DNA from: a virus
Lineage: Duplodnaviria > Heunggongvirae > Uroviricota > Caudoviricetes
Length of the DNA: 44,960 nt
Reading direction: 5' to 3' (one strand)
Virus record (IMG/VR): IMGVR_UViG_2529292828_000011
Shown: positions 27,668 through 40,210 of the stretch, piece by piece
Position numbering within the stretch: position 1 is the first letter of the stretch
Layout of the letters: every line of letters begins with the position of its first letter
Program-made: the position numbers and the translations under genes
Notes under the pieces: generated by a model
Seen by the model: the letters and a program-made list of their open reading frames with translations, nothing else
Database searches by the model: none
What the model was told of the DNA's origin: nothing

Positions 27668-27742
<75 letters not shown>

Positions 27743-27745
27743 ATA

Positions 27746-27820
<75 letters not shown>

Positions 27821-28014
27821 CATTGGTTCCTCAAGAGAAATAAAAATGACCGCGCTTTATATCCCATTCGGAACCGAAGATGGATATTAATAATGCCGGC
27901 TCTTTTTTCAATAGAAAATCATGTCAATATTCGTAAATATATGTATGTATTTTTATTATTCATGAATTTTAGAAAAATAACATGCGCATTTAACGTACTG
28001 CACCACTTTCCGGA

Positions 28015-28706: not shown

Positions 28707-28987
28707 AACGATAACTCCGTACATTTGGACATTATCGCCACCGTCAGGTGCTAATCATCGTGGTGGCGAACTGTGCGGGGTTAGCACTACCGGGCACGGA
28801 AACCGGCGAGCCTTTCGGCTCCCCCACACAGCCCGCCATAAATCGCGAATATGACTGTGCAAACGATATGAAAAAAGACGCGGGCGCGCCTCATATCGCT
28901 CCGTAAACATCCGGGGTGCTAATCCCGACAACCGATTTTGCGGTTGCGTCGGAAATATAGCCCCGGACAATGTGTCTGGTCAAGCTC

Positions 28988-31510: not shown

Positions 31511-31541
31511 GAAAATAAAAACAAAAACCCGCCGAAGCGGG
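31511..31541 (-). terminator. rho-independent terminator downstream of hok
   Basis: cccgcttcggcggg hairpin followed by tttttgttttt on the minus strand. Confidence 0.55.
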
Positions 31542-31611
31542 TTAAGTGTGGGTGCATTGAGGATGCCTGACTCATCAGAGATGGCGAGGGATTTCTCCCC
31601 CGCCTGGTCTC

Positions 31612-31767
31612 TTACTCCTCAGGTTCGTAAGCTGTGAAGACAGCGACCTCCGTCTGGCCGGTTCGGATTCGTACCTCGCAGAGGTCTTTCCTCGTTACCA
31701 GCGCCGTCACTATGACGGTTAAACAGATGACGATCAGGGCGATTAACATCGCCTTTTGCTGCTTCAT
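31612..31767 (-). CDS. hok: Hok-family type I toxin (HokD/RelF-like), 51 aa
   Basis: Translates to MKQQKAMLIALIVICLTVIVTALVTRKDLCEVRIRTGQTEVAVFTAYEPEE, a canonical Hok sequence; absent from the ORF track because it is under 60 aa. Confidence 0.85.
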   Translation of the reverse strand: MKQQKAMLIALIVICLTVIVTALVTRKDLCEVRIRTGQTEVAVFTAYEPEE

Positions 31768-31979
31768 AGCCCGCTTCTCTTTGACCTTTTGGTCGGTAAG
31801 AGGCTAATCTACGTATGCAAAGTATAGATGTGGCCTCAGATTAATGTTAAGCGTCTTGCAGGACGTGTAATGTTAACTGGGGCTTTTCTCTATCTGCCGT
31901 TGGTGTTCATGCCCGAGGCAGACAGCCTCAAGCACCCGCAGCCATTCTACTTAACTCCCGTTACCTCGCCAATATGAAA

Positions 31980-32069
31980 TCAGTCAGAAAGGCGATCCAT
32001 AAGAATAATGGCAAGACAATAAATCGCCATTACAGCCACAATAGCCAGCGCACATTTGAGAACCAGCAC
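31980..32069 (-). CDS. candidate small hydrophobic peptide (29 aa; type I toxin-like or truncated hok paralogue)
   Basis: GTG start preceded by AGGAGG at 5-nt spacing; encodes MLVLKCALAIVAVMAIYCLAIILMDRLSD. Confidence 0.3.
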   Translation of the reverse strand: MLVLKCALAIVAVMAIYCLAIILMDRLSD

Positions 32070-32400: not shown

Positions 32401-33750
32401 TCAAAGATATCTTTCTTCAAAATCCTTTGCTTCACATAGAGCTGGATTTATTCTTGCAATTATTTCTTGGCAATTAGAGATATTATCCTGCAGAGCTTTA
32501 ACAGCCTTTTCTTTAATTTTAGGGATATTATTGAATTTTCCTTTCATCATACCTTCAGCTCCAAATGAACCCCAATTGCCTGCAGCACAGATATGAACAA
32601 TGAGTTCGAAGCAATTTATGTTGTCCATCAAACTGGAGATGTCACCATCGTATGAATTTACACTCTGAGCAAAAGTGTTAGCTTCAGAGAAAGTTGTAGA
32701 TCCGGCCTGCCCAAAAATTGATTGGATGACTTTCTGTCTAGCCCACTCATGCCCTTTTATATTCTTCATCAGCACTGGGCTAAGTTTATATTTTTCAAGA
32801 ACATCATCAATGCTAGATCTAAAGCATCTATCAATAATTTCTCTTTCCAACCCAAGAACACTAATTGCAATCTGTACAGGGTGCCTTAAATAGGTATGCT
32901 GATCGGAGGATTTTGTAGTTGAAATTGTATCCTCAAACATTTTATTTAATCTTAAGTAAACAATATCCTCCATACCTTTTAGCAAATTACCATTGGTTGA
33001 AATACATTCCATTAAACATTGTCTTTTACTTTCATCCGAACTGCACTCAACTAAGAAATGCTTTTTTATTTGCTCAAGAACATCGTTATTTAGTGGTTTA
33101 AAAGATAGGCCTAAAAGATATCTTTTTGCATTAAGTTTTATTTGTTCATTGGCATTGTCTAATGACTCTATGAGTTTTTTCAGGAGGTATGAGTAACCAT
33201 CATGATGAAGATTTTTAACACCCTCATTTACTACGATAGCATGGTCCTGAATATTAGATGTTGGGAATAAGTATGAATTGGTAAGCTTAGATAGGATTTG
33301 GTCGGCAACTTGAGTTGTTGAAAGAACTGGCTTTGAAAGAAATCTATTTATAGTTTCTGAATACACATATCGAGCTTCTTCAGCTGTCGGTTTATGGCCT
33401 GAAGGATGTGCAGCTTTATTTCTGAGAGTTCTTAACACAGTGAGAAAGTCAGCATCAATCTCTGTAATTATTTTTTCAGATTTCAATTTATTAAGCAAAT
33501 CATTTTCGTAAACTTTTTGTTCATCTCTTTTCTTGGATATTTCTGTAAAGATCGCTTTAGCAACTCTATTCGTAGTGGCCATCCCGTCTAACTTTTTGAA
33601 TAAGTCCTCGAAGATGGCAATGAACGAAAGCACTACGCATGCTCGATGAGCACCAGTCATATAGCAAATTAGTGCTTCTCGCATGTATTCTTTAAGCTCA
33701 ACATCCACGATATCACCAATAAGCTCTTCCATATCTCTCAGACTCGACAT
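32401..33750 (-). CDS. orphan 449-aa protein with N-terminal HEPN-like domain (Rx4H motif RNKAAH), candidate abortive-infection/defence protein
   Basis: AT-rich gene with AAGGAG Shine-Dalgarno; N-terminal about 140 aa resemble DUF4145/HEPN-type domains (..LRTLRNKAAHPSGH..); C-terminal 300 aa helical with no recognised domain. Confidence 0.5.
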   Translation of the reverse strand: MSSLRDMEELIGDIVDVELKEYMREALICYMTGAHRACVVLSFIAIFEDLFKKLDGMATTNRVAKAIFTEISKKRDEQKVYENDLLNKLKSEKIITEIDADFLTVLRTLRNKAAHPSGHKPTAEEARYVYSETINRFLSKPVLSTTQVADQILSKLTNSYLFPTSNIQDHAIVVNEGVKNLHHDGYSYLLKKLIESLDNANEQIKLNAKRYLLGLSFKPLNNDVLEQIKKHFLVECSSDESKRQCLMECISTNGNLLKGMEDIVYLRLNKMFEDTISTTKSSDQHTYLRHPVQIAISVLGLEREIIDRCFRSSIDDVLEKYKLSPVLMKNIKGHEWARQKVIQSIFGQAGSTTFSEANTFAQSVNSYDGDISSLMDNINCFELIVHICAAGNWGSFGAEGMMKGKFNNIPKIKEKAVKALQDNISNCQEIIARINPALCEAKDFEERYL

Positions 33751-33878: not shown

Positions 33879-34394
33879 TCACTCATAAAGACTGGATTTA
33901 CTATTACATTAAACTCAACAAGACCTGGCCGCACCCACTCAGCGCGATCTTTGCGCGTCCGGCCCGTTTCCGGCACTATTCCCCGTCCGTATTGTGAAAA
34001 AACACCCATGCTAATTTCTGCGCATCTGAATGCCTGCGCACGCGGGTGAATGGCGGGCGGTTTCGGGCAAATGCGGGAATTAAGGGAGGATTTCCGGCAG
34101 TAAACGTGCGAAGTATATTGATAAATCTGTACGTGATTCACGGTTAACAGGTGCGCTGTTTAGTGGGTGAACGTGAGGCGTTAAGCAGCGAGCTTTGTGA
34201 GGCGATAGCGGTTTTTAGAGCCAGCTGCAGGCTCAGGAAAAAATATTCTGTTTTCGGGGCAGACACCGCAAATGACGACATTTTGCGGGGGTCTGCCCTA
34301 TCCTGCATCTCAGCAAAGCGGTGCCCTGTTCCCACCATGAGGTTTACCCGTCGCAGACCGCCGTAAGGTCGCGTTTTCCCATTCCTTTCCGTAC

Positions 34395-34735
34395 AACGGG
34401 TTTCCTTAAAGGTGGTGCGATCCAAGCTTGGCTATATGCACGAACTCCCCGATCCACCCGACTACCACAGCAATTTAGGTAACTGTTCTCTTGATCCCAA
34501 TCTTGACAGGCACGATAAATCGCCAATGGTGGTAACCATTGGTAACTGGTTTTATGGAGCGAGTAAACGCACGAAAGTACAAAGAATTCTTGAAGTGTCG
34601 GCCTAACTACAGATACACTGAAAAGACAGTTTTGGTTACTGCGCTCCGTTAAAGCCAGTTACCACGGTTCAAAAAGTTGGTAGCTCTAAGAACCTTGAAA
34701 AAACACCATTGGTAGCGGTGTTTTTTCTTATCTAG
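34395..34735. other. ColE1-type plasmid replication origin remnant (RNA II body and antisense RNA I region)
   Basis: Collinear similarity, judged by eye, to the pBR322/ColE1 ori region (e.g. gaattcttgaagtgtcggcctaactacagatacactgaaaagacag vs gagttcttgaagtggtggcctaactacggctacactagaaggacag); weaker similarity may extend left to about 34170. Confidence 0.6.
34626..34726 (+). ncRNA. RNA I-like antisense RNA of the ColE1-type origin (possibly a relic)
   Basis: Begins ACAGUUUUGGUUACUGCGCUCCG.. (ColE1 RNA I begins ACAGUAUUUGGUAUCUGCGCUCUG..) and ends in a ..GGUAGCGGUGUUUUUU terminator-like stem. Confidence 0.45.
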
Positions 34736-34778
34736 AGCTGGATACTATCACCACACATAAATTCATTAAGGAAAAAAG

Positions 34779-40152: not shown

Positions 40153-40210
40153 TTTCTGGTGACGTTTGGCGGTATCAGTTTTACTCCGTGACTGCTCTGC
40201 CGCCGTTTTT
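40153..40210 (+). ncRNA. dicF: DicF small RNA
   Basis: tttctggtgacgtttggcggtatcagttttactccgtgactgctctgccgcc followed by gttttt matches E. coli DicF as I recall it; upstream of dicB. Confidence 0.85.

Follow-up and report, generated by a model that had tools for sequence, protein, structure and literature searches.

How is a Hok-family toxin gene controlled when the reading frame that overlaps it in the position of mok has no start codon? In hok/sok systems, translation of Hok depends on prior translation of mok by ribosomes that reach the hok start. A locus that poses this question lies in a 44,960-nt stretch of DNA (the window, which denotes this whole stretch as we analysed it; IMG/VR record IMGVR_UViG_2529292828_000011, Caudoviricetes), and all positions given below follow whole-window numbering. 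A preliminary description of the locus had called attention to the startless frame, to a long leader and to the lack of a relBE partner, and had left open whether a Sok-like antisense RNA or transcriptional read-through controls the toxin.

A hok gene with a predicted hok/sok leader

The hok coding sequence (31612..31767, minus strand; 51 codons plus a stop) yields on translation the peptide MKQQKAMLIALIVICLTVIVTALVTRKDLCEVRIRTGQTEVAVFTAYEPEE. This peptide matches the Pfam family HOK_GEF (PF01848, Hok/Gef; E=1.2e-23) and PHROG 251, annotated as 'MokW-like host killing' (2.8e-33), and it is 100% identical to HokD of Escherichia coli K-12, which bears out the earlier identification of a canonical 51-aa Hok. 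That description also called the gene unlisted, which is accurate in that the ORF fell below the length cutoff then applied, but RefSeq annotates the gene as hokD in identical genomes. By megablast, at least 21 complete E. coli chromosomes from diverse hosts contain a 601-nt region that is 100% identical to the window, and this sequence conservation could mean either that the haplotype has lately spread with a clone or that it is kept because it serves some function. We also observed that the codon for Tyr47 of hok (TAC, 31629..31627) is embedded in the context CTTACGAA (31631..31624, minus strand), the motif for A-to-I editing by TadA, which, according to published work, changes a Tyr codon to Cys in hokB mRNA and, at a low level (6%), in hokD mRNA.

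Immediately upstream, the segment 31937..31762 (minus strand) matches the Rfam hok/sok family RF01794 at 97.9 bits (gathering score, 59; E=2.6e-22), far more than chance would give. The match covers the full length of the model (positions 1-157) and takes in the 170 nt upstream of hok (31937..31768) together with the first hok codons. Because the model is built on the sense strand of hok, with the hok AUG as its end, the strand of the match, which is that of hok, says nothing about the strand of Sok. The long leader of the preliminary description is present and structured, but its length is 170 nt from a predicted +1 near 31937 and not 200 nt.

A consensus scan places the putative hok promoter at 31944..31972 (minus strand), with a -35 element TTGGCG (31972..31967), a 17-nt spacer and a -10 element TAGAAT (31949..31944). 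The -10 element and the sequence 3′ of it are conserved in an alignment with 933W, Rac442, L73 and HYM1. If the 5′ end of the message corresponds to position 1 of RF01794 and its 3′ end to the intrinsic terminator found by a terminator scan (AACCCGCTTCGGCGGGTT followed by a T-run; 31526..31543, minus strand), then the full-length hok mRNA would be approximately 416 nt long (31522..31937, minus strand). This RNA is predicted to fold with a free energy of -168.4 kcal/mol (z = -7.9 relative to shuffled sequences). In both the minimum-free-energy and the centroid structures, a tac-like 5′ element (GGGUGCUUGAGG; 31926..31937, minus strand) that is invariant in eight aligned loci pairs, over 31937..31926, with an fbi-like 3′ element that is complementary to the mRNA 5′ end and conserved in most relatives (CCUCAAUGCACCC; 31550..31562, minus strand). 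Such a tac/fbi fold-back arrangement is a defining trait of hok mRNAs.

With these elements in place, the extent first assigned to the cassette (31612-31960) proves too narrow on both sides, since the promoter -35 element reaches 31972 and the 3′ UTR ends near 31522. Rfam matches to ceN48, isrK and rsmX within 31522..31924 do not reach their gathering thresholds and coincide with parts of the hok leader or terminator, and we discarded them as chance or generic terminator matches.

A predicted Sok antisense RNA gene

The opposite strand carries a predicted Sok-type antisense RNA gene of 71 nt (31817..31887, plus strand), consisting of a 5′ tail, a long hairpin and the tail GGGGCUUUU. Its boundaries follow from the annotated sokW gene of 933W (741..671 of the 933W locus in our collection, L003), which aligns exactly, base-for-base, to this interval. 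The sequence 31817..31893 folds into a 5′ tail, a long hairpin and a U-rich tail with a predicted free energy of -30.2 kcal/mol (z = -5.6). Upstream lies a putative Sok promoter (31781..31810, plus strand) composed of a -35 element TTGACC (31781..31786), an 18-nt spacer and a -10 element TAATCT (31805..31810). It is positionally homologous both to the region upstream of 933W sokW and to the Sok promoter of plasmid R1, and its hexamers are conserved in relatives. The -10 element matches the consensus at only 3/6 positions and is therefore not reported by a generic promoter scan. The predicted gene overlaps, in cis, the translation-initiation region of mok.

The hokW-sokW pair is an experimentally demonstrated type I toxin-antitoxin system with a 71-nt Sok (PMC8621323). 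Thus, at the sequence level, the regulation that had been described as unclear is accounted for by a Sok gene with its own promoter exactly at the 933W sokW site. Among five family features that can be tested in sequence, the toxin, the leader, the predicted tac/fbi pairing and the Sok gene are all present, and the mok start codon is missing. Judged from these features, the locus is a hok/sok toxin-antitoxin cassette of a lambdoid E. coli prophage, predicted to be complete at the RNA level, and its homologies assign it by descent to the hokD/hokW subtype of the hok/sok family.

Relationship to known hok loci

The identical toxin in the Qin prophage of K-12, encoded by hokD (relF), provides the most direct contrast. 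The two loci share the 51-aa HokD, the downstream rem and DUF968 (ydfU) genes, the 3′ UTR, the fbi element and the terminator, and they are nearly identical from a point approximately 15 nt 5′ of the hok ATG up to and including the terminator. Further upstream the sequences are unrelated. In K-12, where the gene order is relB-relE-hokD-rem-ydfU, relBE replaces the entire leader, mok and sok, whereas the window retains the full leader and the Sok gene with point mutations in translation signals. As had been stated previously, relBE is lacking: tblastn searches with the K-12 RelB and RelE proteins detect no homologue anywhere in the window, and the sequence upstream of hok is a hok leader rather than part of a relBE-hokD operon. 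Because homology to K-12 stops approximately 15 nt 5′ of the ATG and relBE is absent here, the sequence comparison identifies the relBE-linked arrangement of K-12 as the derived, truncated form, and the window as the one that keeps the ancestral leader lost in K-12. Inactivation of the K-12 gene has been ascribed to 'genomic rearrangements' in which canonical components of the toxin-antitoxin system were lost (PMC12214031).

The hokW-sokW loci (with mokW) of the Stx2 phages 933W and Sakai Sp5 are about 91% identical to the window at the nucleotide level over the 400-nt cassette (90.7% for 933W), and 933W shares with it the promoter -10 element, tac, the position of Sok, fbi and the lambdoid prophage setting. 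The Hok peptides differ only near the C-terminus. However, 933W has a mok ATG, a GGAG Shine-Dalgarno core ahead of hok and an A at position -5 of the hok ATG, whereas the window has none of the three, and in 933W a 1-nt deletion puts mok in frame with hok to create a 70-aa fusion. In addition, 8/16 of the first Sok nucleotides differ between the two loci, and for this reason the specificity of Sok probably differs as well.

Further relatives are found in Escherichia phage Rac (strain 442/2, MN652886), whose annotated mok/hok locus is 95.5% identical to the window, and in the chromosomal loci of HYM1, L73, Ceylon31 and GPEC1258. All five loci have the same leader subtype, the same 58-nt distance between the mok and hok starts and a colinear 68-aa Mok frame, but they have the ATG, the GGAG and the A at -5 that the window lacks. 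The more distant hok/sok (parB) locus of plasmid R1 likewise exhibits the same order of elements, the 58-nt spacing, a mok frame that overlaps hok in the +1 register, the same tac/fbi pairing logic and the same targeting of the mok initiation region by Sok. It differs in that it resides on a plasmid and not on a prophage, in that its Hok is only about 45% identical to that of the window, and in that the window Sok hairpin has an insert of approximately 16 nt relative to R1.

Loss of the mok start codon

On the minus strand, the frame equivalent to mok runs without a stop between 31840 and 31619, overlapping hok in the +1 register. No ATG, GTG or TTG occurs within this interval, in agreement with the earlier observation of an open overlapping frame without a canonical start. 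We located the position of the mok start by aligning the window with Rac 442/2, in which mok is annotated, with 933W and with an R1-type plasmid. These alignments define a mok-equivalent reading frame of 68 sense codons and a stop (31619..31825, minus strand), colinear with the annotated Mok of Rac 442/2, that begins with a degenerate start codon, ATA (31823..31825, minus strand), at which relatives have ATG; the mutated base is 31823. Eight nucleotides 5′ of this codon is the mok Shine-Dalgarno sequence GAGG (31834..31837, minus strand), which all aligned loci share with R1-type plasmids. A displaced or non-canonical mok start elsewhere was considered and rejected: the mok frame holds no ATG, GTG or TTG, the hok frame is closed by a TAG that lies 14 codons before the hok ATG, and stop codons interrupt the third frame throughout.

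In an eight-sequence alignment, ATG occupies the mok start in 7/7 relatives as well as in the R1 type, and ATA is private to the window. The same is seen in a larger sample from IMG/VR of 80 viral loci whose Hok is identical to that of the window, 77 of which have the leader: all 77 leader-bearing loci have ATG at the mok position. Over the region compared among these loci (L011-L090; -57..-40 relative to the hok ATG), the mok ATG alone is invariant, and the 12 nt that follow it, which correspond to the Sok 5′ tail (window 31822..31806 region), occur in 15 versions. The frame into which mok is read also varies. In 66/77 loci mok and hok share a frame and form a 70-aa fusion like that of 933W, and in 11/77 mok is a 19-codon ORF that ends in an ATGA overlap with hok; the lineage of the window has the R1-like +1 overlap of mok and hok. 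That ATG persists in 77/77 loci despite 15 versions of the adjoining 12 nt indicates that ATA is the derived loss of a strongly constrained base.

The frequency of the two alleles was estimated by searching 5,426 complete E. coli genomes with two 60-mers that differ only at the mok-start base. The leader subtype of the window is present in 106 of these genomes, with exact matches to the ATA version in 27 and to the ATG version in 45, and with the remaining 34 closer to ATG. Mok thus begins with ATG in 79/106 genomes of this subtype and with ATA in 27/106. On the basis of these alignments and counts, we regard the missing mok start as the result of one derived G-to-A change (ATG to ATA) on a rare haplotype, and not as the mark of a different type of hok locus.

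A haplotype altered in three initiation signals

The mok start is not the only translation signal that has changed. Within the hok mRNA, the eight-sequence alignment reveals six substitutions private to the window, three of which fall in translation-initiation signals (a proportion singled out post hoc). These three are the A for G at 31823 in the mok start codon; an A for G at 31780, which converts the core of the hok Shine-Dalgarno sequence from GGAG to AGAG; and a G for A at 31772, position -5 of the hok ATG. The other three are an A for G at 31866 in the apical part of the Sok/hok hairpin, a G for A at 31702 that is synonymous in hok, and a T for C at 31581 in the 3′ UTR. As aligned, the hok Shine-Dalgarno sequence of the window (31777..31781, minus strand) reads AAGAG where relatives have AGGAG, and the altered base corresponds to position 161 of R1.

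Both of these additional sites are otherwise nearly invariant. Only one of the 77 viral loci departs from AGGAG, and none departs from A at -5; K-12 hokD and R1 both have GGAG and A at the positions equivalent to 31780 and 31772. A 60-mer spanning 31780 and 31772 finds exact matches in 27 genomes, the same count as for the ATA allele. This agreement in number indicates that the three changes form one haplotype, carried by approximately 0.5% of complete genomes (27/5,426).

Functional interpretation of the allele

The distance from the mok start to the hok start is 58 nt in the window (31825 to 31767) and also in R1, where the two AUGs are at nt 116-118 and 174-176, and this equal spacing permits positions of the two loci to be mapped 1:1. 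The three changes in the window then correspond to G118A, G161A (the Shine-Dalgarno core) and A169G of R1, an equivalence drawn across leaders that are only about 65-70% identical. In R1, a deep mutational selection of variants that had lost toxicity recovered T117C, T117G, G118T and G118A in the mok start, and the same study found that translation of mok has to extend at least as far as the hok Shine-Dalgarno sequence (PMC9841398). A169G was likewise recovered as a loss-of-toxicity mutation, with truncated hok mRNA present and Hok protein absent (PMC9841398). The window therefore carries natural equivalents of two R1 suppressor mutations, G118A and A169G.

We hypothesize that this hok allele is translationally silenced or strongly attenuated while its Sok gene is intact, a reading to which we assign a probability of roughly 70%. 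With a weak hok Shine-Dalgarno sequence, a G at -5 and, at the start of mok, an AUA codon, which in E. coli supports only about 1-2% of the initiation seen with AUG (10.1101/063800), Hok would not be made, or its level would be no more than about 1% of normal. The argument is that Hok translation needs prior translation of mok and that the initiation features have been lost, so the toxin is probably not produced. Both the hok mRNA and Sok RNA would probably still be transcribed, and the allele would resemble those hok loci of the K-12 chromosome that have been inactivated. The mok frame remains open, but too few substitutions have accumulated for its openness to be informative. A structural rationale for the three mutations was also sought and is not relied on, as ViennaRNA folds of the window and of 'repaired' alleles, both full-length and 3′-truncated, gave differences in accessibility that were small and inconsistent.

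Alternatively, the locus might be a working but attenuated hok/sok system in which AUA, following the GAGG Shine-Dalgarno sequence, initiates at a low rate and permits coupled Hok synthesis when Sok decays, for example during prophage induction. AUA is a near-cognate start codon whose initiation in E. coli reaches approximately 1-2% of that of AUG (10.1101/063800), and even small amounts of Hok are potent. The mok Shine-Dalgarno sequence, its spacing and the open frame are preserved, all other RNA elements are intact in sequence, and a role at induction has a precedent in the functional hokW-sokW system of Sp5, which aids phage release (PMC8621323). However, the same AUG-to-AUA change abolished the toxicity of R1 (PMC9841398), and the haplotype bears two further down-mutations, in the hok Shine-Dalgarno sequence and at -5. 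The invariance of ATG in all 77 viral loci amid a hypervariable flank also suggests that a non-AUG mok start is not tolerated in functional loci. We consider such residual function unlikely, though it deserves serious consideration.

A silent toxin gene with an intact Sok gene might have been kept as a module for 'anti-addiction' or immunity in which Sok alone acts, its antisense RNA neutralising the hokD/hokW-type cassettes of superinfecting lambdoid phages or of P1-like phage-plasmids. P1-like phage-plasmids do carry a nearly identical leader 60-mer, and the start-codon mutation also alters position +7 of the Sok 5′ recognition tail. We view this proposal as improbable; if it were true, the change at +7 may retune the specificity of Sok.

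More doubtful still is the possibility that hok has been rewired to operate independently of mok and Sok. A sigma-70-like site on the hok strand (31850..31821, minus strand) comprises TTAACA, 18 nt and TATACT, where relatives have TATGCT in place of the last hexamer, and this -10 hexamer includes the mutated mok-start base. The G-to-A change improves the site to a 10/12 consensus match, the best in the region by promoter scan. A short transcript starting near 31814 would be free of tac and of nearly all of the Sok target, and the weakened Shine-Dalgarno sequence would keep Hok sublethal. However, the site is a consensus match in an AT-rich hairpin, the version found in relatives, with 9/12 matches, also exceeds the scan threshold, and no comparable internal promoter has been described for any hok locus. 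The hok Shine-Dalgarno sequence on which such a transcript would depend is, moreover, both mutated and predicted to be largely paired.

Finally, a stand-alone hok gene without a Sok-type antitoxin, served by read-through from upstream genes, would suit the missing mok start, the absence of relBE and the small ORF and DUF4145 gene that lie upstream on the same strand, but it is scarcely credible given a conserved Sok gene and promoter that map onto annotated sokW, a promoter of the cassette's own and full-length homology to Sok-bearing loci. The read-through suggested in the preliminary description is not needed, as the cassette has a putative hok promoter, a terminator and the predicted tac/fbi pairing.

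Prophage surroundings

The window is a lambdoid prophage. On the 3′ side of hok it encodes rem, a DUF968/ydfU homologue, RusA, a Q antiterminator and lysis genes. Its RNA genes include DicF, a C4 antisense RNA, isrK, tRNA-Gly(TCC) and tRNA-Thr(TGT), with sites at 40154..40205 (plus strand), 28759..28947 (minus strand) and 27668..27821 (minus strand). A full-length match to the Rfam family RNAI (RF00106) is also located inside the prophage, at 34627..34729 (plus strand), with 68.4 bits against a gathering score of 47. The approximately 800 bp that surround it (about 33935..34745) resemble, at 68-78% identity, the RNAII/RNAI origin of thousands of small ColE1-type plasmids, and they have no annotation in an identical RefSeq genome. 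This region may be a remnant of a ColE1-like origin or an integrated small plasmid.

Directly upstream of the hok promoter is a strongly hydrophobic ORF of 29 aa (MLVLKCALAIVAVMAIYCLAIILMDRLSD; 31980..32069, minus strand), which PGAP annotates as a hypothetical protein (WP_000960667.1) and which has no match in Pfam, PHROGs, NCBIfam or PADLOC. Further upstream of the cassette, a 449-aa DUF4145 protein (32401..33750, minus strand) has a match (4.2e-15) to PD-T7-3, a candidate defence gene in PADLOC. In HYM1, the closest relative with a mok ATG, the position of the DUF4145 gene is taken by a gene pair encoding an AAA ATPase and a DUF4435 protein. This exchange suggests that a variable cargo or defence slot adjoins hok.

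Implications for hok loci

The existence of the hok/sok system, the prophage location of this locus and the annotation of its gene are already known. The sole new detail is the rare triple-mutant haplotype, which mirrors mutations selected in the laboratory as suppressors of toxicity. If the allele is silenced as we propose, 'hokD' annotations in these genomes point to a toxin gene that probably cannot be translated, and counts of 'active' toxin-antitoxin systems that are based on the peptide alone would overestimate function. Among the viral loci, an invariant mok ATG combined with a varying mok frame agrees with the idea that all that is required of mok is translation reaching the hok start. 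Similarly, the occurrence in the wild of a haplotype with the laboratory-selected AUG-to-AUA and -5 A-to-G changes corroborates the mutagenesis of R1, and it supports mok-coupled translation as the point at which hok loci tend to be inactivated.
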